Origin: a virus
Length of the DNA: 45,305 nucleotides
IMG/VR virus record: IMGVR_UViG_3300045988_023147
Direction: 5' to 3' (one strand)
Positions 1-45,305 of this stretch are shown one piece after another. Below the pieces are notes generated by a model that worked only from the letters and a program-made list of their open reading frames with translations, ran no database searches and had not been told where the DNA came from. The translations under genes and the position numbers were made by a program. Position 1 is the first letter of the stretch, and every line of letters starts with the position of its first letter.

Positions 1-55
1 ATCTCCTTTTTGTGTATTTACATCAATCTGGCCAGATTGTAATGTACTATTTCAT
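1..55. repeat. Terminal direct repeat, left copy (identical to 45251-45305)
   Basis: Base-by-base comparison: atctcctttttgtgtatttacatcaatctggccagattgtaatgtactatttcat occurs at both ends. Confidence 0.97.
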
Positions 56-268
56 ATTTTTCAGCAGATTTTGAAACTGCCCTGCCATCTGCTGAACCTG
101 ATTAAGTTGCTGTTGGGAAATCTTCCCAGACTGTAACATCTTCTGAACTTCTGCTTTCGGATCCCCCTTAAAACTCTGCTTGAACTGCATAAACTGCTGT
201 ATCATCTGCATTGGACCGTTACCCTGTGGCATTCCACCACCGAGTGCGTTGAATAATGGATTACTCAT
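47..268 (-). CDS. Small Gln/Met-rich protein (73 aa), unknown function; part of the low-complexity cassette
   Basis: ORF with GGGAGGAA RBS 6 nt upstream. Overlaps the stop of the upstream ORF. Q-rich low-complexity sequence (QMIQQFMQFKQ, QQQLNQVQQMAGQFQ). Confidence 0.7.
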   Translation of the reverse strand: MSNPLFNALGGGMPQGNGPMQMIQQFMQFKQSFKGDPKAEVQKMLQSGKISQQQLNQVQQMAGQFQNLLKNMK

Positions 269-731
269 CTGTGTTTCCTCCCTTGGTCGTTGATTCCTGC
301 ACGGTATTAGCCCTAACAGGTTCAGAAAAAGAATTTAATCGGTTTATGATAGCTTCATATTTGCCCTTTAAATCGTCATATTCCTGTCTGGTGACATATT
401 TATTGTCCATGTTCTGAACAGGCTGTTTAGGCGGCATCTGAGAGCCTACTTCATGATACTCAAACGTCCGTAATGGTTGTGGCATACCGGAAACGTCTGT
501 GGATTTTATGTAGAACTTTTCGCTTTCACTGTCCATCAGCAAAACACTTGTTCCAGGTGCTACCAGATAAGATTTTGCGCCTACTTCGCCAGATACCCAC
601 AGGATTCCATTATTATTCTGCTGTGGTTGCTGTACTGGTTGAGCTGGCATCTGGACAGGTTGCTGTTGGAACTGGTTCATCTGTCCTGGAACGCCGAAAC
701 TATATTGATAAGGATTGTTATATAATGCCAT
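261..731 (-). CDS. Q/P-rich N-terminus plus beta-rich core protein (156 aa), unknown function; first gene of the cassette
   Basis: Start moved to ATG 731 (GAAAGGCGG RBS 8 nt upstream; the track start at 740 is a GTG with no spacing). N-terminal QQQPVQMPAQPVQQPQQ, then LWVSGEVGAKSYLVAPGTSVLLMD. Confidence 0.7.
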   Translation of the reverse strand: MALYNNPYQYSFGVPGQMNQFQQQPVQMPAQPVQQPQQNNNGILWVSGEVGAKSYLVAPGTSVLLMDSESEKFYIKSTDVSGMPQPLRTFEYHEVGSQMPPKQPVQNMDNKYVTRQEYDDLKGKYEAIINRLNSFSEPVRANTVQESTTKGGNTDE

Positions 732-764
732 TTTATACACCGCCTTTCTGATTATATTTTTGCA

Positions 765-800
765 TAAAAAAAGAACCGGAAACAGGTCGTTTCTGGCTCT
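765..800 (-). terminator. Intrinsic terminator after the small HTH gene
   Basis: 12-position stem 772-783/789-800 (one wobble, one mismatch), 5-nt loop. Followed on the minus strand by a 7-U run (plus-strand A-run 766-772). Confidence 0.7.
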
Positions 801-819: not shown

Positions 820-1020
820 TCAGCACACTTTAATTATTTTATTGTTTACTCTCCGGCTCAATCGTTTCGCCGTGGATATACTCACGTTCATCTGTTCAGC
901 ACAGTATTCGAGTGTATATTCCTTGCATCTCAGCCGAAACAATCTTTCCTCGTCCGGCGTAAAATTACACTCTACTAAGAATCTGTCTATATCTTTCTTT
1001 GTGAACACATATAATTTCAT
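820..1020 (-). CDS. Small sigma-70 region-4-like / LuxR-type HTH regulator (66 aa)
   Basis: FTPDEERLFRLRCKEYTLEYCAEQMNVSISTAKRLSRRVNNKI resembles a sigma r4.2 HTH. AAGAGG RBS 7 nt before the second ATG (1020). Confidence 0.6.
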   Translation of the reverse strand: MKLYVFTKKDIDRFLVECNFTPDEERLFRLRCKEYTLEYCAEQMNVSISTAKRLSRRVNNKIIKVC

Positions 1021-1043
1021 GAGCATACCTCTTATTAATTCAA

Positions 1044-1349
1044 TTAACGCTGATTCTGTGCAAGATAATTTGTAAGCTTCTGTTTTGTTTTTTTTAATTC
1101 TTCCACATTGTTTCCACTGATCTGACTGTCCAGCATGGTCGAGAGTACTTCAAGAATTAAAGAATCCCTTTCAGCAATCCTTTGAAGACTTTCGTAGTCT
1201 CGCTTATCATGTTCTTCCAGTGTCTCAACTCGCTTGTTGAGTCGGAATGCCGGAGCAATCCACTTAAGGATTACAGCTGCTGCCCCTCCAAAAATTGATA
1301 TTCCTCCGCAGACTGAAAGAAAAAATTGAATAAATTCCTGTATGTTCAT
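1044..1349 (-). CDS. N-terminally membrane-anchored coiled-coil protein (101 aa)
   Basis: Hydrophobic FFLSVCGGISIFGGAAAVILKWIAPAF followed by a charged helical region. Coupled to its neighbours. Confidence 0.6.
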   Translation of the reverse strand: MNIQEFIQFFLSVCGGISIFGGAAAVILKWIAPAFRLNKRVETLEEHDKRDYESLQRIAERDSLILEVLSTMLDSQISGNNVEELKKTKQKLTNYLAQNQR

Positions 1350-1351
1350 TT

Positions 1352-1735
1352 TTATAAGCTCCTTTCCCAGTAATATACCGGGACTTCATTTCCGGAATCC
1401 CATGTATCATAATATTTTCCGTCTTGTACCGTCACCACATGGCCGTCTATGCAGAGAATGTACGTGCCGGTCGGATGATCTGCGCAGAAGTCATTTACTG
1501 TATAAATATACCTCTCTGACTGCTCCACAAGCTTTCTGTGAAATCCATGCTTCGCTAAATATGATCCCCATACATAATTGGCGCTTGGCATATCTGATAG
1601 TGAGCAAGCATATACCATTAATCCTGTAAATACCGTCTCCCAGTCAAGTTCTAACGCCTTACATATAGCCCGGATAGCACAGTCACCTACACGATTCCCA
1701 GCTGGATTCGGATTAAAATATACCCATCTTTCCAT
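1352..1735 (-). CDS. Putative papain-like cysteine peptidase (127 aa)
   Basis: NRVGDCAIRAICKA near the N-terminus, later IDGHVVTV and YDTWD: a Cys...His...Asp order typical of small papain-fold phage proteins. Confidence 0.45.
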   Translation of the reverse strand: MERWVYFNPNPAGNRVGDCAIRAICKALELDWETVFTGLMVYACSLSDMPSANYVWGSYLAKHGFHRKLVEQSERYIYTVNDFCADHPTGTYILCIDGHVVTVQDGKYYDTWDSGNEVPVYYWERSL

Positions 1736-3427: not shown

Positions 3428-4879
3428 CTATTCATCCCCAAATAATCCACTTGCTTTGTTTTCCTTATTCGCTTCTTCTGCGAGAGCTTTCGCGTCCTCT
3501 TCGCTAAATCCTTCAAATTTTACCAGATAGTACCAGAACGGAATCTTGCCAGTGGTCACATACTGCCACCATCTCGCACGGTCGTTTTCTCTGACATAGA
3601 GGATGTCTCCAAAATCATAATTGACTTCATAAGCTCCGACAGGTGCAAGCCCGTACAGATCAGCGTAAACGTTCAATGCGTAAATAACTTCATCTAAGCA
3701 AGATTCCAACTTATCCCTTACATCCTTGACGAACTGTACTGTCCTCTGCTGTTCCGCCTCCACTCCTGTAGCCGTCTGAATGCCGCTAGATTCGTTAAAA
3801 ACAAAGTATCCGTTGGAGAATCCAATCTTGTACCCTAACTGGCTTAAAATGGCGTTTATGCCGCTTATACGGGTATCTGTGTTTAGAATCGGATTGATTT
3901 CCTGATAGAACTCTTTTTCATCCTGTCCGAATACGTTTTTCACATAATCTGGCAAACTCATTTCTGAGCATCTGTGTTCCATTGCCTGTGGCGTCATAGC
4001 GGAAACAGGCGAGCCACTTGGCATCAGCAGCCGGTCATCTGCCAGAACAGTCCTCTTAGAATCAAGGATTTCTTTTGCATTACGGCTGTATGCAATGTCC
4101 AGGTCTTTCAACTCTTCAATTGCTTCTGCAAATATCGGTAAGCCGAGTGGTGCACTGATATCCACATTGTTCGCCTGTGGTGTCCGCAGTACTCCGTACA
4201 ACGGCCCGTCCAGCTTCTCACCGTTTGCCTTGAGAATCGGCGGTGTATCTGCCATGAGGTCAGCCCATTTAGTCTGTTTAAGGTCAATCTTATCGCCAAT
4301 GCTCTGAGGGGATTTTGACACATAGGCTCTATTAGAAACATAATACGGATAGGTCGTCACTCCATCCACAGTGGTCTCAACAAAACGATGATATTCGAGC
4401 CGTGTATAGTATTTCCGTCCAACAGTATAAGAATCCTTGAATATAATCCCTTTAATTTCTTGATTGTCATAATCCACGATCATCACATCTGCCGGAGTGA
4501 ATACGTCAAGGCTCTCGCCGTTCGGCTTAATGAACACGGTTCCGTAAGCGCAGCCATATTCCACCCAGTGCCGAATCTGGAAGTATACCTTGTCAATCTG
4601 CTCCTGCAACCATGTTGCCCTTGCAGAACCATCAATCTGAATGCCGATCGCCAATGTTGCAAGTCTGGCAGTCTCAGAACACACAGATTTAGCAAAATTA
4701 ATCGTCTTGATGTTATTTTTATCATCTAACCAGTATGGAACGCCTCGATATATGTTTGCACATTTATTAATCAGTGATTCCATTTCCGGGAACTCTGCTG
4801 CCTGGATATTAAAATCCTCTTCGGCTTGTTTTTTGAATATCATGTTAAACCACCTTTTTAGTGTTGTTATAAGTCCCAT
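3428..4879 (-). CDS. Portal protein (SPP1 Gp6-like)
   Basis: 483 aa, downstream of terL. Size, position and acidic C-terminus are typical of siphophage portals. Confidence 0.8.
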   Translation of the reverse strand: MGLITTLKRWFNMIFKKQAEEDFNIQAAEFPEMESLINKCANIYRGVPYWLDDKNNIKTINFAKSVCSETARLATLAIGIQIDGSARATWLQEQIDKVYFQIRHWVEYGCAYGTVFIKPNGESLDVFTPADVMIVDYDNQEIKGIIFKDSYTVGRKYYTRLEYHRFVETTVDGVTTYPYYVSNRAYVSKSPQSIGDKIDLKQTKWADLMADTPPILKANGEKLDGPLYGVLRTPQANNVDISAPLGLPIFAEAIEELKDLDIAYSRNAKEILDSKRTVLADDRLLMPSGSPVSAMTPQAMEHRCSEMSLPDYVKNVFGQDEKEFYQEINPILNTDTRISGINAILSQLGYKIGFSNGYFVFNESSGIQTATGVEAEQQRTVQFVKDVRDKLESCLDEVIYALNVYADLYGLAPVGAYEVNYDFGDILYVRENDRARWWQYVTTGKIPFWYYLVKFEGFSEEDAKALAEEANKENKASGLFGDE

Positions 4880-41005: not shown

Positions 41006-42169
41006 TCATTTTGCTGTTACAGTCGCATGCCCAGCACTAAGTGCCTTATAGGTGCTGTCACATTCAACCACTGTGATCACCTGTCCTGTTGCTGCGGTAA
41101 TGTCAGATTCGCCATCCCACGCGCTCCAGTTCTTCACATTCTGCCCGTAGTCTACGGCTGTCTCAGAAGATGCGACTTTGTACTTATATACATTTCCTGC
41201 GCTTACTTTTTCCGGAGTAACAGTCACTTTTGTATCTCCGCTCTTACTTCCTGCTGCAGAGTTTACGGTGAGGGTTCCAAGTGTCTGTGTTGTGTTGATG
41301 GTTCCAACGGCAATAGCGTCAATGTACTCTGCAAAAAGTGTAAGTCCCATGATTGCGAATGCTTCTGACACTGCTGTGTGGTAGTTGCCCTGTGTATGGA
41401 ATCCGATCAGATTTGTCTCTCCAGATACAGTGTATACAAGGCCTGCTCTTGCAAAGTCAGATTCATTCGGGTCTACATAGTACAAAACGATATTCTCAAC
41501 AGGTGTTGCGATAACTGTTCCTCTTGGAATTTCGCTGTCAGATAACAGGAAAATTGTATTAAATCCCAGGAAGTCTTTCATATACTGGAAGCCGAACTGG
41601 TTCTGAATAGTGATATCAGCTGCACCGATATACTCATACACATCCAGGATGTTCACAAATCCAACAACGCCAGTCACATTTCTGTGCATCTGCTTGAATT
41701 TGTTTTCTACCCGCCCTTTCGCCATTGCTAAAGCCATCTGGAAAGTAGTCTCAGTAAATGAGAGAGTACCTGTTTTCAGATATTTATAAAATCTTTCAGT
41801 TACGTTGGTCTGAAGCTGGAAAAGGAATTCGTCATCAGTCATCTGAACAGCGTTCTCATAACCGTGATCCTTGATTGCTTCGATAGATACAGCCTTTGCA
41901 TATTTCTCAATAGTCATCTCTGCATAAGGCTTTTCTTTTACAACGAATTTGCTGTAAGGGATTTCCTCACCCTCACCAACGTTTCCATTCTCTAATGTAC
42001 CTTCTGCATATTTGGATTTGAGAACTGCTCCAGGTGTCTTTTTGATTGGACGCATGATACCCAGGATTTCACGTAAGTGCTCCCAGTTTCTTTCGAATCT
42101 GGTGACGAAATCAATCTCACGCGCAGTCACCTGAATATCAGCAGATGTGATAAGTCTTTCTTTTGCCAT
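41006..42169 (-). CDS. Major capsid protein (HK97 fold) with C-terminal Ig-like domain
   Basis: ATG 42169 (GAAAGGA RBS). Follows the scaffold gene. C-terminal ~90 aa (TLTVNSAAGSKSGDTKVTVTPEKV...) looks Big_2/Ig-like. Confidence 0.8.
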   Translation of the reverse strand: MAKERLITSADIQVTAREIDFVTRFERNWEHLREILGIMRPIKKTPGAVLKSKYAEGTLENGNVGEGEEIPYSKFVVKEKPYAEMTIEKYAKAVSIEAIKDHGYENAVQMTDDEFLFQLQTNVTERFYKYLKTGTLSFTETTFQMALAMAKGRVENKFKQMHRNVTGVVGFVNILDVYEYIGAADITIQNQFGFQYMKDFLGFNTIFLLSDSEIPRGTVIATPVENIVLYYVDPNESDFARAGLVYTVSGETNLIGFHTQGNYHTAVSEAFAIMGLTLFAEYIDAIAVGTINTTQTLGTLTVNSAAGSKSGDTKVTVTPEKVSAGNVYKYKVASSETAVDYGQNVKNWSAWDGESDITAATGQVITVVECDSTYKALSAGHATVTAK

Positions 42170-42212
42170 TAAAAAATCCTTTCTACCCATAATTGTTAAG
42201 GTATTGGGTCAG

Positions 42213-42246: not shown

Positions 42247-42879
42247 TCACTGGAATAACTGGATGTTCTGGGCAATTGCAGCCTGTCTTTCGGACGGGTC
42301 TTTAATTGCTTCAATTTCCTTTCTGGTCATGGTTCCCGGTGTCTGTTGCTGTCCAACATGTGTGGTAAATCTTGCCTGATTTTGCTGAGCCTGCTGCTGG
42401 GAATCATCTACAAAAGCAGAAGCATCAGACTGTTTCATCTGTTCAATCAGGTCATTCAGTCCAAGGATTTTACCGTCTTTCAGCTTCAATCCTGCTTCCT
42501 TGATATCTGCCATTACGGATTTCTTTGCCGCTTCACTGGAAAACTTAACATCTTCGAGTGCTGCTTTGAGTGCATCTAAAAAATCACGATCGTAGATTTT
42601 TGCATTGTACTCTTTTTCAGCATCTTCCGCTTTCTGCTTCCAGGTTTCTAACTCAGTTTTTACATTTGCCGGGTCGATACCATCAAAGCCCTTTAATGTC
42701 TCCTCTGCTGTCTCAGCACGTTCTTTCCAGTTGTCGCGCTCTCCCTCGACTTTTGACAGAGTTTTTTCAACTTCTTTTGCATTCTTATAATGCTCGGAGA
42801 GTGCTTTCTTCACATCTGCCTTTTTGTCTTCCGGAATTTCGATTCCAAATGATTTTAATGTGTCAATAAGTTTCTGCAT
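42247..42879 (-). CDS. Scaffolding protein (Phage_GP20-like)
   Basis: ATG 42879 with AGGAGGA RBS. Helical, K/E-rich. Directly upstream of the capsid gene. The N-terminal part of the track ORF overlaps the tRNA flank. Confidence 0.7.
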   Translation of the reverse strand: MQKLIDTLKSFGIEIPEDKKADVKKALSEHYKNAKEVEKTLSKVEGERDNWKERAETAEETLKGFDGIDPANVKTELETWKQKAEDAEKEYNAKIYDRDFLDALKAALEDVKFSSEAAKKSVMADIKEAGLKLKDGKILGLNDLIEQMKQSDASAFVDDSQQQAQQNQARFTTHVGQQQTPGTMTRKEIEAIKDPSERQAAIAQNIQLFQ

Positions 42880-42957
42880 ATATATCCTCCTGGTCGTGTT
42901 TATTGACCTGCCGCCGCAGGTAAATGGATTAAGCCAGTTAGACCACTGGCAAGGTAA

Positions 42958-43031
42958 TTGGAAAGGCAGGACTCGAACCTGCGGCGTCAAGGACTATGCG
43001 TCCTCCGCTCTTCCAACTGAGCTACATTCCA
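42958..43031 (-). tRNA. Phage tRNA with CAU at the anticodon position but a non-canonical anticodon loop (CGCAUAG, G at position 33) and a 6-nt variable region
   Basis: Hand-folded cloverleaf: acceptor TGGAATG/CTTTCCA (one T-T mismatch), D arm GCTC-AGTTGGAA-GAGC, anticodon stem GAGGA/TCCTT, T arm GCAGG-TTCGAGT-CCTGC. U8, A14, G18G19 and T54T55C56 present. No encoded CCA. Confidence 0.7.
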
Positions 43032-43358: not shown

Positions 43359-43922
43359 TCAAAGCATATTTCTCAGTTTTTCAACGTATCTTTTAACAAG
43401 ATCACGTTCCTCCCGGCACTCTGCATCCTTAGACATATCACTCATTTCTGTGGTAAGCTCATCCAGGTGTTCTTCCAGTGCTGCAAGCATTTTTCTTTTG
43501 CACTCTTCAGATTTACCGGAGCGATAACTCTGCTTCTGCGTCATGTAGTCGTTATATGTGTCTCTTCCATCAGATCGAATGTAGCTTCCTCTTGCGGATC
43601 CATAGTTATGATTTCCATCATCGTAAGAGCTGCCACGATCATAATCCGGGTACATCATCCTTCCATCACCACGACTGTATCTCCCCATGCTATCGCGTTT
43701 TCTTCCGCGTTCGCTGTAATCATCATTGTATCCGCCTCGCATCTCATCAAGGACAGCGTTGTAATACTCCACCTTTTTATCCCAGTACTGGGTATTCTTG
43801 ATATCTTTGTACATATCAATGAGCTTATAAGTCATTTCCAGATTTCCGGTGGTCAGCCCGCTGTCTGCGATTTTTGAAAGCTCGTCCTCTATTCTTGTGC
43901 ATAAATCCTTAATATCTCTCAT
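43359..43922 (-). CDS. Protein with helical ends and a central R/D/Y/G/S-rich low-complexity region (187 aa)
   Basis: AGGAGG RBS. Centre GGYNDDYSERGRKRDSMGRYSRGDGRMMYPDYDRGSSYDDGNHNYGSARGSYIRSDGRDTYNDY. Confidence 0.65.
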   Translation of the reverse strand: MRDIKDLCTRIEDELSKIADSGLTTGNLEMTYKLIDMYKDIKNTQYWDKKVEYYNAVLDEMRGGYNDDYSERGRKRDSMGRYSRGDGRMMYPDYDRGSSYDDGNHNYGSARGSYIRSDGRDTYNDYMTQKQSYRSGKSEECKRKMLAALEEHLDELTTEMSDMSKDAECREERDLVKRYVEKLRNML

Positions 43923-43933
43923 AACTGCACCTC

Positions 43934-44356
43934 CTACGCTTCTCTAGTCACGACAATATTTGCGTTCGCAACAGAAACAGCCTGTTCGCTTGTGTTTTCT
44001 ACTGCGATATTAACACAACATCCACGAGGTACATCAATATAGATGCCAGAGGACACATTGTTGTACTGGTCTACTGCTGCCGGCGTGGAAATCATCTGAG
44101 AAGAAAGAACCGGTTCGCCAGAGATTGCAATAGCCAGAGAAATAGCTCCGACAGTACCGCCTGTTGGAATTGCGATATTGCCAGAAAAATCCACAAAGAA
44201 TCTCGCTTTGCACTGGTTAGTCAGTCCTCTCAGAGTGATGATTCCGCTTCCTTCTCTGTGCTGAATGCAGTTAGAACCTTTAACTGCTGTGTTTGAAAAT
44301 ACTACGTTTCCATTTGCTGCTACAGTCTGAGCAGCTACATTTGTAAATTCTGCCAT
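43934..44356 (-). CDS. Beta-rich 140-aa protein, C1q/TNF-like (BclA-CTD / ExsFA / DUF3992-like) by pattern
   Basis: GAAAGGAG RBS. Alternating hydrophobic beta pattern (NVVFSNTAV..., GIITLRGL..., RFFVDFSGNIAI, ISLAIAISGEPV, SSGIYIDVPRGCCVNIAV, ANANIVV) recalls spore-surface jellyroll domains. Confidence 0.6.
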   Translation of the reverse strand: MAEFTNVAAQTVAANGNVVFSNTAVKGSNCIQHREGSGIITLRGLTNQCKARFFVDFSGNIAIPTGGTVGAISLAIAISGEPVLSSQMISTPAAVDQYNNVSSGIYIDVPRGCCVNIAVENTSEQAVSVANANIVVTREA

Positions 44357-44376
44357 AAAAATACTCCTTTCATATC

Positions 44377-44402
44377 ACAAAAGGACAGGTCTCAGCCTGC
44401 CC
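44377..44402 (-). terminator. Weak intrinsic terminator between the 258-aa and 140-aa genes
   Basis: Minus-sense GGGCAGG/CCTGTCC stem (G-U only in the minus sense) followed by UUUU. Confidence 0.4.
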
Positions 44403-44466
44403 CTCTGTGTAATACGGCATAAGCCGACATTCGAATCAATCGAAAGATACTCTCGATATGAAGTTA

Positions 44467-45243
44467 TCAGCAATTGCATCCGGTGTTGCATCCGCATCCG
44501 TAATATGTGTTCGGGTTTGGAACCTGATATGCCGGGATTGGTGCCGGATTGAGCGTATTGGTTAACCGCTGTATCTGTGCGGACAGCTCAGCTGTAATCA
44601 GTGCACTCTGGCGATCCTGAGAAGCGGCGCGTCTAAGGTCATTGTTTTCAGCTTGCAAGCTAGAAATCTTTTCATTGCAAAGATAATCTAAGATAGCCCT
44701 CATGTTTGTATTCTGGTTATCAATGATATCTCTTGTGTTGCTGTTTATGGTGTTCTGCAATGCACAGGTATTCTGTGCCATGTTGTAGTTTACACCCTGG
44801 ATTGCTTCCCTGGTTTCACAGCAGCAGTTTGCGAGCTGTGCCTGGAGCGCATTTGTATTCTGCATATTGGCTACAGTGTCAGCATTGATTGCCTGCTGGA
44901 TTCCAAAGCCAGTCTGCATGATGTTGGTGTTAATTCCGTTGAATCCGGTAAGCATACCGTTGTTCACTGCATAGAATCCATCACAGAGGCCGTTATTGAT
45001 TCCGTCAAGCTTGCTGATTACTGCGGAGTTATCGAATCCTCTCTGAATGTCTGCCTGAGTAGCTGCCGTGGCTGTATATCCACCACCGTTGCCATTATTG
45101 CCCCAGCCGTTGTTTCCCCATCCGAAAAATACGAGCAAGAAAAGTACGATAAGCGGCAATATGGCATCTCCGCCAAACATTCCATCATTTCTGTTGTTCC
45201 CGGTTAAAAGAGCAACGTCTGATGCTGTTAAATTTCCATCCAT
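44467..45243 (-). CDS. Membrane-anchored N/Q/G-rich, Cys-rich protein (258 aa)
   Basis: AAAGGAG RBS lies in the junction repeat. TM ILPLIVLFLLVFFGW, GNNGWGNNGNGGG linker, N/Q-rich helical region with LANCCCETREA, C-terminal YYGCGCNTGCNC. Confidence 0.7.
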   Translation of the reverse strand: MDGNLTASDVALLTGNNRNDGMFGGDAILPLIVLFLLVFFGWGNNGWGNNGNGGGYTATAATQADIQRGFDNSAVISKLDGINNGLCDGFYAVNNGMLTGFNGINTNIMQTGFGIQQAINADTVANMQNTNALQAQLANCCCETREAIQGVNYNMAQNTCALQNTINSNTRDIIDNQNTNMRAILDYLCNEKISSLQAENNDLRRAASQDRQSALITAELSAQIQRLTNTLNPAPIPAYQVPNPNTYYGCGCNTGCNC

Positions 45244-45250
45244 AGTTATA

Positions 45251-45305
45251 ATCTCCTTTTTGTGTATTTACATCAATCTGGCCAGATTGTAATGTACTAT
45301 TTCAT
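45251..45305. repeat. Terminal direct repeat, right copy (identical to 1-55)
   Basis: Exact 55/55 identity with the left end. Confidence 0.97.

Follow-up and report, generated by a model that had tools for sequence, protein, structure and literature searches.

The virus genome IMGVR_UViG_3300045988_023147 (IMG/VR), analyzed here as one stretch of 45,305 nucleotides (nt; hereafter the window), carries five consecutive minus-strand genes between its SPP1-gp7-like gene and the scaffold gene. We call these genes A to E; they encode proteins of 156, 73, 258, 140, and 187 amino acids (aa), respectively. They belong to a portable, autonomous phage operon, for which the head module of this phage is one of many landing sites. 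The first gene of the unit is s68, which encodes a 68-aa protein with a putative helix-turn-helix (HTH) like that of sigma-70 region 4, and p127, which encodes a putative papain-like Cys-His-Asp enzyme of 127 aa, is an optional member. Protein D is predicted to be a stand-alone C1q/TNF-like jellyroll, and protein C is a candidate membrane stalk. Tentatively, and with rather less than even confidence, we propose that the operon builds a membrane-tethered complex of stalk and jellyroll in the infected cell.

A Portable Phage Operon

We compared 52 loci, 47 of them from species-representative genomes (fetched with the C alignment), four from isolated phages and one from Dulem virus 35 (L002), and called the presence of each gene with iterative profiles. 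Since the loci were found via C, its frequency of 52/52 is by construction. A recurrent arrangement among them is s68–(p127)–A–(B)–C–D–E: A is present in 43 loci (directly 5′ of (B)–C), E in 31, D in 28, p127 in 23 (usually directly before A) and B in 18, and in 34 loci the module is immediately preceded by a homolog of s68. The unit is not limited to the five genes grouped in a preliminary description of this DNA, since s68 starts it and p127 is often included. Some members are frequently associated. D is accompanied by E in 25 of its 28 loci (Fisher p = 3e-6) and B by p127 in 16/18 (p = 3e-6), s68 is found with A in 33/43 loci, and an FGG-type motif in the N-terminal tail of C occurs in 21 of the 23 loci with p127 against 16 of the 29 without it (p = 0.005); none of the three p-values is corrected for phylogeny.

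The hosts or sources of the 52 loci include Lachnospiraceae, Ruminococcus, Acutalibacter, Collinsella, Tenericutes-type metagenome-assembled genomes (MAGs), and others, where some taxon labels of MAGs (e.g., Akkermansia, Treponema, and Victivallaceae) may stem from binning errors. The unit lies between gp7 and scaffold in just three loci (L002, L099, and L100) and elsewhere in 49/52. There, its upstream neighbors include holins, endolysins (PG_binding_1, M23, Amidase_3), tail-collar proteins and host genes, and its downstream neighbors include integrases, HTH repressors, Erf/RecT, lysins, Ltp, ToxN, glycosyltransferases, and host genes. Prophage edges and early regions are among these other landing sites. 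In the isolated Butyrivibrio phage Ceridwen, p127-A-B-C-D-E sits after the lysin. The Clostridium perfringens phages XP41-N3 and CPD1 have A and C between antirepressor and recombination genes, four further C. perfringens phages also carry C, and an integrase was not seen in the fetched regions of the C. perfringens phages. A prophage in the Eubacterium ramulus genome has the unit as its outermost block, adjoining rplT. At this prophage edge, a 128-aa Mn_catalase (CotJC-like) gene is found between the host ribosomal protein genes and the module (L138, 7029–7415, minus strand).

Roseburia phage Jekyll has the gp7 nearest to that of the window among isolates (51%), and its gene order is gp7, an 88-aa gene, a scaffold-like gene and capsid, with the cassette absent. 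The insertion into the head module that had been described is therefore real for the window phage, but the inserted unit is larger than five genes and most loci have it elsewhere. A position in the head gene order was not conserved across relatives, as seen from both Jekyll and the three loci beside gp7 and scaffold.

Gene Conservation and Family Size

Proteins A (phrog_21718), B (phrog_22984), C (phrog_16490), D, E (phrog_28802), and p127 (phrog_3754) each match a PHROG family of unknown function with E-values from 1e-26 to 1e-61. In IMG/VR, A–E are intact and full-length in 76–79 of about 78–80 close relatives. The ratio of non-synonymous to synonymous substitution rates (dN/dS) across some 80 close relatives is 0.02–0.10 for the cassette genes (0.02 for s68 and 0.04 for D) compared to 0.08 for the capsid gene. 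The PHROG matches, the intact copies and the low dN/dS together show that these are not chance open reading frames (ORFs), and we conclude that the cassette genes are real and under purifying selection. Within the relatives L003–L082, a full-length match to the gp7 of the window was present in just 12/72, while D averages 97.6% identity. This better conservation of the cassette than of its neighbors indicates mosaic exchange around a stable cassette.

The families are large. That of D comprises at least 7954 clusters at 90% identity. For A, 8000 candidates were scored, and 3101 such clusters among them have E ≤ 1e-3. For C, a limit of E ≤ 1e-3 gives 1687 clusters at 50% identity, and 866 of these also pass E ≤ 1e-10. 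Close relatives of C are encoded on more than 590 IMG/VR stretches, and one family member is found in the isolate genome of E. ramulus.

Pfam, NCBIfam, and PADLOC gave nothing usable for A–E, and no Pfam family was found for A, B, C, E, or p127. The only PADLOC match, of GajB to the coiled coil of C, is at chance level (E = 0.007), and no known anti-phage defense system was detected with this tool. Sequence and profile searches of the PDB with D, p127, A, C, and a family of alternative partners of C (see below) returned chance-level or coiled-coil matches, except for a weak match of D to 9h38. The literature on DUF7841, RAGATH-21, phage C1q/BclA proteins and C. perfringens phages yielded nothing functional, and no proteomic data were found there for phages that carry the module. 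The earlier impression that no described system has this composition thus holds in all of these searches.

Protein D Is Predicted to Be a C1q/TNF-Like Jellyroll

The AlphaFold2 model of D (43934–44356, minus strand), built from a 116-sequence alignment, has a mean local confidence (pLDDT) of 94.7 and a predicted template modeling score (pTM) of 0.87. It forms a ten-strand jellyroll that can be superimposed on the C-terminal domain (CTD) of BclA or on C1q. Foldseek searches of the PDB with this model gave E-values from 1e-7 to 4e-5 and template modeling (TM) scores of 0.57–0.78 overall (9h38, 1wck, 7r1m, 8d02, 1rj7, and 1pk6). The matches are the C-terminal domain of F-BclA (9h38, E = 1e-7, TM 0.73–0.77), ExsF/BxpB/ExsFA (9h3d, 8d02, and 7r1m, TM 0.76–0.78), BclA-CTD (1wck, TM 0.68–0.70) and EDA-A1 (1rj7, E = 6e-6), and C1q heads and 4-1BBL were also among them. 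As modeled, the fold of D is confirmed to be of the C1q/TNF type, closest to F-BclA, BclA-CTD, and ExsFA/BxpB. The likeness to BclA-CTD and ExsFA had been suggested beforehand and is borne out at the level of the fold. The relation to DUF3992/Ena suggested along with it was not found: neither Ena (DUF3992) nor F-ENA (DUF4183) gave a Pfam match in A–E, the D-family members or the alternative partner family.

At the level of sequence the likeness is fainter. Three of 29 D-family members match Pfam BclA_C (PF18573) with E-values from 5e-7 to 7e-5; the match in L132, the only one whose bit score was read, is below the gathering score (23.1 bits against a cut-off of 38), and D of the window itself gives no match. 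The weak profile match to 9h38 in the PDB pointed in the right direction, as the fold match showed. Several stand-alone relatives of D with 130–143 aa, all from uncultured phages, are present in BFVD, and a CC motif is invariant in D.

Where D is present (28 loci), it mostly lies directly 3′ of C. In at least ten loci without D, the slot after C is occupied by an unrelated Cys-rich beta protein. These proteins were considered as possible relatives of D, which was rejected since hhalign shows no relation.

Protein C Is a Candidate Membrane Stalk

Protein C (44467–45243, minus strand) has an acidic N-terminal tail with the motif FGG|D, one hydrophobic helix, a G/N/W linker, an N/Q-rich helical region and a C-terminal CxC. 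The motifs GNNGWGNNGNGGG, CCC, and YYGCGCNTGCNC that had been noted in the 258-aa protein are all found in it. In the 101 diverse members compared, an invariant or nearly invariant G precedes the hydrophobic helix, usually within (F/W)GG(D/N), and the CCC of the helical region, duplicated in some members, is conserved to the same degree. The G/N/W-rich linker GWG..G..G, SQxxQ, PxP..P (PxPxPAY), and the C-terminal CxC are likewise invariant or nearly so. No Pfam model matches any of the 101 members, and their PDB profile matches are generic coiled coils.

Homologs of C were also identified in Bacteroides phage C3_41T2LP, where a PolyVal metallopeptidase adjoins the module, and in Suoliviridae crAss-like phages with the gene order holin, LysB/FtsL-like, DUF7841, and C. 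DUF7841 (PF25223) proteins, which have low-complexity tails (RG-rich/acidic), are encoded along with C in crAss-like, Bacteroides, and some Firmicutes loci, e.g., at 4000–4635 in L135 (cr53_1), 7967–8368 in L086 and 5481–6332 in L113; the crAss records label them as "RNA polymerase sigma factor/ubiquitin-like." In the Suoliviridae loci L135 and L136 several genes near the C homolog have in-frame stops under translation table 11, which is consistent with stop-codon recoding, and in cr109_1 the homolog is split into three ORFs. Some C-family representatives (P0282, P0287, P0252, and P0317) are fusions, which join A to C, C to E, s68 to C, or the N-terminal half of C to an SGNH/GDSL hydrolase. 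These could be artifacts of gene calling or assembly, or they could be genuine and support a functional linkage.

Regulatory Elements of the Unit

The gene for s68 is found at 820–1026 (minus strand). Its matches to Sigma70_r4 (E = 0.007, 16.2 bits against a threshold of 24.1) and TIGR02937 (E = 7e-5, 22.6 against 42.9) are below threshold, and it matches the "sigma factor" family phrog_1190 with E = 2e-6. From its sequence and position, s68 is likely the dedicated regulator of the unit. Between s68 and A lies an intrinsic terminator (765–800, minus strand), already noted in the preliminary description and supported by folding: an 11-pair stem with one mismatch is followed by U7, with a folding energy (dG) of −12.7 and a z-score of −3.5; a simple terminator scan did not pick it up. 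An equivalent hairpin with a T-run is present 3′ of s68 in most of the diverse loci.

The promoter-like motif TTATGCAAAAATATAAT (751–767, minus strand) follows directly after this terminator and lies about 15 nt before the ribosome-binding site (RBS) of A; the window contains one exact copy of it. Elsewhere the motif likewise sits directly past the s68 terminator and about 15 nt 5′ of the RBS of the first structural gene. The window, L090, L098, L115, L117, and L121 clearly show ATGC(A/G)AAAAT(A/T)TAAT or a similar form, and L099, L100, and L084 have looser versions. TTATGCAAAAATATAAT is accordingly a candidate for an s68-dependent promoter, and we infer an arrangement of regulator, insulator and dedicated promoter. 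Such an arrangement would account for the unit working wherever it is inserted.

A second structured region, the leader between C and D (44368–44430, minus strand), has a small hairpin followed by a GC-rich hairpin of 14 bp just before the RBS of D. The latter coincides with what had been taken for a weak terminator (44377–44402), but it is not weak (dG −22.6, z-score −6.1), and its U-run lies partly within the stem. About 14 of 28 loci have a GC-rich hairpin and a T-run directly 5′ of the RBS of D, and the rest have a C–D junction of 11–17 nt. The C–D gaps of L002, L087, L089, L090, L096, and L100 have a conserved structured leader as in the window. Common to these seven related leaders is the small hairpin (ATGT-CGGC..GCCG-TATTAC), flanked by ATGT and TATTAC. 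Compensatory changes are present in 4 of the 13 predicted pairs across both hairpins in the seven sequences, among them a change from G-C to U-A in the small hairpin. This suggests partial termination (an attenuator) or processing that would set the ratio of A-B-C to D-E. Neither the terminator nor the leader hairpins have a match in Rfam.

Proteins A, B, E, and p127

Protein A (261–731, minus strand; its ATG start is supported by homologs of 156 aa) has a disordered Q/P-rich N-terminus, a small beta-containing alpha/beta domain, a coiled-coil helix and a K-rich basic tail. In the AlphaFold2 model a 55-residue domain (residues 41–95) has a pLDDT of about 90, residues 115–133 form a helix and residues 1–40 are disordered. 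No structural match was found in the PDB (best E = 0.2), and poxin, Tad1, and SH2 were rejected as folds of A (E > 0.2). Protein B (47–268, minus strand; its start overlaps the end of A) is helical and Q/M-rich with a conserved G-NP...L.SG..Q.Q.N core. A double-glycine leader in B was considered and rejected, as its GGG is not conserved. Protein E (43359–43922, minus strand) has conserved helical ends and a length-variable R/D/Y/G/S-rich center with a recurrent RRDSMGRYS-like motif.

The gene for p127 is found at 1352–1735 (minus strand). Conserved residues of p127 are N8, N10, D18-C19, R22, H99, G106, and D110. Of these, N8/N10, C19, H99, and D110 vary little or not at all among 24 sequences, giving the order Cys, His, Asp with an upstream Asn/Gln. 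We take this order and spacing, compared with ComA, to be that of a papain-like or C39-like enzyme. No match of p127 to any peptidase family was obtained in Pfam, NCBIfam, or PDB profile searches.

Organization of the Locus in the Window

The order of transcription on the minus strand is portal (4879–3428), a 143-aa gene, the SPP1-gp7-like (MuF-like) gene (2993–1743), p127, a 101-aa gene, s68, A, B, C, D, E, scaffold (PF06810), and major capsid protein. The same order is found uninterrupted in Dulem virus 35. All five ORFs of the cassette are present where the preliminary description had placed them, and the approximately 4 kb that it gave for the distance from gp7 to scaffold measure about 4.1 kb (end of gp7 to start of scaffold). 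It had also assumed a circular junction, which is real: bases 1–55 are identical to 45251–45305, an exact terminal direct repeat of 55 nt. As this is an assembly overlap, the genome is circular, its true length is 45250, and 53 nt separate the contiguous genes B and C. The perfect 16-bp palindrome claimed at 24–39 is present in this gap as caatctggccagattg and folds weakly (dG −7, z-score −2.3).

The 101-aa protein, encoded at 1044–1349 (minus strand) between p127 and s68, has an N-terminal hydrophobic helix. Its homologs were found in only four loci, and its membership of the unit is uncertain. Across the loci, a family of about 100 aa follows directly after E in ten and a SprT/IrrE-like mini-metallopeptidase is present in five.

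The 479-nt gap between E and scaffold contains a full-length RAGATH-21 RNA (RF03097, 43149–43224, minus strand) with 93.3 bits against a gathering score of 70.3 (E = 2e-17). This boundary feature is also present at the E–scaffold junction of Dulem virus 35 (L002, 6522–6598). It was not found in seven module loci situated outside head modules and is not part of the portable unit. A tRNA-Met (CAT) follows just 5′ of scaffold at 42958–43031 (minus strand; 48 bits with Rfam, and also found by ARAGORN), and a tRNA is present between E and scaffold in L099 and L100 as well. The 247-aa scaffold ORF with a TTG start (42247–42990) is over-extended across this tRNA, so the true start is near 42879. Residues 313–393 of the major capsid protein (41006–42190, minus strand) match the Pfam family S-l_SbsC_C (S-layer SbsC C-terminal domain; E = 2e-14), which may be a built-in surface decoration domain. 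The stretch 44001–45000 has the highest GC content of the genome (0.45 compared to about 0.40) and is the only one on the late strand with a non-negative GC skew (+0.013); both values fit a foreign origin of C.

Proposed Mechanism and Alternatives

In the mechanism that we propose, s68 would act on the motif past its own terminator, and this motif would drive A-B-C and then D-E, with the C–D hairpin probably setting the ratio between the two halves. C would be inserted in the cytoplasmic membrane by its single N-terminal hydrophobic helix, and its N/Q-rich helical region with the cysteine clusters would be the stalk. The slot 3′ of C would supply an exchangeable small beta-rich partner, here D, which is expected to trimerize like BclA-CTD, ExsFA, or TNF ligands and to dock on the stalk. 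Together C and D could make up a split TNF-ligand/BclA-like fiber of anchor, stalk, and head, possibly locked by the conserved cysteines of C (CCC, CxC) and D (CC). The remaining proteins A, B, and E may be disordered or coiled-coil adaptors, and p127, where present, could process or cross-link a component, the most plausible target being FGG|D in the N-terminal tail of C. Inspection by eye, not by a predictor, showed no evident N-terminal signal peptide in any partner, the module shares the orientation of the late genes and some carriers lack an integrase in the fetched regions. Assembly is therefore placed inside the infected cell and in the lytic cycle, probably on the cytoplasmic face of the membrane.

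Our leading guess for the purpose of such a complex is one related to the envelope and egress, or to the host cell surface, rather than to capsid building. We rank a cell-associated role at the membrane or in egress first, followed by a role in the virion, by lysogenic conversion or phage exclusion, and lastly by a bacteriocin-like product. A bolder version of the proposal strikes us as rather doubtful. It holds that the unit represents an unrecognized, widespread class of phage-encoded cellular machinery, in which a self-regulated operon would build a membrane-anchored TNF-ligand/BclA-like fiber or lattice in infected gut anaerobes, for a step of the life cycle without a described counterpart. 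C would provide the stalk and a jellyroll or other beta-rich protein the exchangeable head, together with a matrix of disordered proteins rich in Q/N and R/Y/D and an enzyme for maturation, and the whole could, for example, organize assembly or egress at the membrane or coat the lysing cell or the progeny.

Several points weigh against the proposed complex. The association of C with D is itself something that we infer, and the self-assembling, disulfide-cross-linked layer suggested in the preliminary description is likewise conjectural. The positive-inside signal of C is weak and a poor guide to its topology, with a mean net charge of −2 for the N-terminal tail and about one K/R on each side of the helix. 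Outside Firmicutes only C, sometimes with DUF7841, is shared, and no homology to A or D could be detected for the genes around C in the Bacteroides phage. Of about 22 intergenic regions inspected, just 6–9 or so have a clear promoter motif, the catalytic assignment of p127 is a putative one taken from its residue pattern, and the co-occurrence counts ignore shared ancestry and are suggestive only. Finally, the module lies among virion genes in both the window phage and crAss-like phages.

This last point leads to the alternative that the proteins are associated with the virion, either as capsid decoration or head fibers (a D trimer on a stalk) or as internal cargo or ejection proteins, where the C helix would enter the target membrane on ejection. 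The position between gp7 and scaffold in the window, L002, L099, and L100 and the embedding among tail and virion genes in crAss-like phages agree with this, and so does the PolyVal metallopeptidase beside the module in Bacteroides phage C3_41T2LP. Low-complexity disordered proteins would also suit passage through the tail channel, and C1q-like domains are common at phage fiber tips. However, the 49 loci outside head modules frequently border host genes at the edge of a prophage, structural genes do not usually come with a regulator, terminator and promoter of their own, the close relative Jekyll forms virions without the module, and a stable jellyroll trimer would be a poor substrate for ejection. 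We regard a virion role as unlikely. An accessory role in lysis or egress, to which we give a somewhat lower probability still, would have a membrane-anchored, Cys-linked coiled-coil complex act at the last step of release, comparable to spanins or envelope disruptors, or mask receptors on debris after lysis. C has the gross plan of the i-spanin Rz, i.e., an N-terminal anchor, a coiled coil and functionally important cysteines. Holin, endolysin, or M23/amidase genes are found immediately up- or downstream in at least ten loci, and the gene order of the Suoliviridae crAss-like phages described above fits as well. Yet the end of a late operon is a generic moron site, so this adjacency may be merely positional, and the module is away from lysis genes in the window, the C. 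perfringens phages and Bacteroides phage C3_41T2LP. Most hosts are monoderm and need no spanin, and no lipoprotein partner was seen.

Just as improbable as the lysis role, in our estimate, is lysogenic conversion, where the module would remodel the surface of the host or spore, for instance by adding to an exosporium-like nap or coat with D as a unit of the BclA/ExsFA type, or would exclude superinfecting phages. Spore remodeling was already among the alternatives of the preliminary description, and it gains from the fold of D, whose top structural matches are exosporium proteins. Most hosts are Clostridia, the module adjoins Ltp, ToxN, glycosyltransferases and integrases where it lies at the end of a prophage, the unit appears transcriptionally insulated, and the Cys-rich, Tyr/Arg/Asp-rich and Q-rich compositions recall those of coat proteins. 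The idea is weakened by C, and by A with C, in C. perfringens phages without an integrase in the fetched regions, and by C in crAss-like and Bacteroides phages of non-sporulating hosts. Collagen-like GXX repeats and an exosporium leader are absent from the sequences of D and C, no signal peptides are evident by eye, PADLOC gave no match, and the orientation of the module is that of the late genes. A bacteriocin- or RiPP-like (ribosomally synthesized and post-translationally modified peptide) product is very improbable by comparison. C would then be a leader-bearing, Cys-rich precursor that is cut at a double-glycine site by the C39-like p127 and released. The N-terminal tail of C, with its FGG|D, does fit the hydrophobic and acidic spacing of double-glycine leaders, p127 resembles C39 domains in size and in the pattern of Cys19, His99, and Asp110, its presence correlates with the FGG motif, and CxC clusters are found at the C-terminus of C. 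But C is 258 aa long and its membrane helix comes immediately past the putative cleavage site, the annotated neighbors include no recognized ABC exporter, modification enzyme or immunity gene, and p127 is absent from 29/52 loci and has no Pfam C39 match.

Significance and Comparison With Known Systems

The module is abundant, strongly selected and repeatedly moved between contexts, and its core proteins have neither a Pfam family nor a name. In combination this marks a recurrent, presumably important function of phages in the human and animal gut that is currently invisible to annotation. A C1q/TNF-type domain, best known from exosporium fibers and immune ligands, would here have a new context, paired with a protein anchored in the membrane. 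Culturable carriers exist, namely Butyrivibrio phage Ceridwen (p127-A-B-C-D-E) and several C. perfringens phages.

Parts of the unit resemble several known systems. Like morons and lysogenic-conversion cassettes, it has its own terminator, a putative promoter-like motif, a slightly deviant composition and a variable presence and location, and the site between lysis genes and integrase that is typical of morons is also found for the unit. Unlike these, it has five to seven co-evolving genes and a dedicated regulator, and it is also found inside structural modules and in phages without an integrase in the fetched regions. C is similar to the spanins Rz/Rz1 in being an N-terminally anchored coiled coil with conserved cysteines whose gene often adjoins those of holin and endolysin, but it has no lipoprotein partner and no sequence similarity to them, its hosts are mostly monoderm and the module is often far from lysis genes. 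The C39 double-glycine leader peptidases share with p127 the size and the order and spacing of Cys, His, and Asp, and C has an N-terminal tail with GG; p127 is nevertheless a stand-alone protein with no ABC transporter and no Pfam or PDB match, and its substrate is a proposed one.

The closest structural parallels are the Bacillus proteins BclA-CTD, F-BclA, and ExsFA/BxpB of the exosporium and endospore appendages. They have the same jellyroll as predicted for D (TM 0.68–0.78, E-values from 1e-7 to 2e-5), and ExsFA/BxpB is about equal to D in size. Their identity to D is just 11–15%, however, and D is phage-borne without the collagen-like repeats or exosporium leader. No ExsY/CotY, DUF3992, or DUF4183 genes lie beside D, the DUF4183 family being the one by which F-ENA is defined (PMC12357932). 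The proposed partner C is also not restricted to phages of endospore formers, as it occurs in Bacteroides phage C3_41T2LP and in the Suoliviridae crAss-like phages. TNF ligands such as EDA-A1 consist of a type II membrane anchor, a stalk and a trimeric jellyroll head, a three-part plan that the anchor and stalk of C with D as the head would copy. The differences are that two polypeptides would be used here, in a bacterial and viral context with no known receptor, and that association, trimer and outward topology are presumed for C and D. By this comparison the unit would work most like a split fiber of anchor, stalk and jellyroll, as in the TNF ligands or BclA on ExsFA, while falling outside both the exosporium and the ENA systems.

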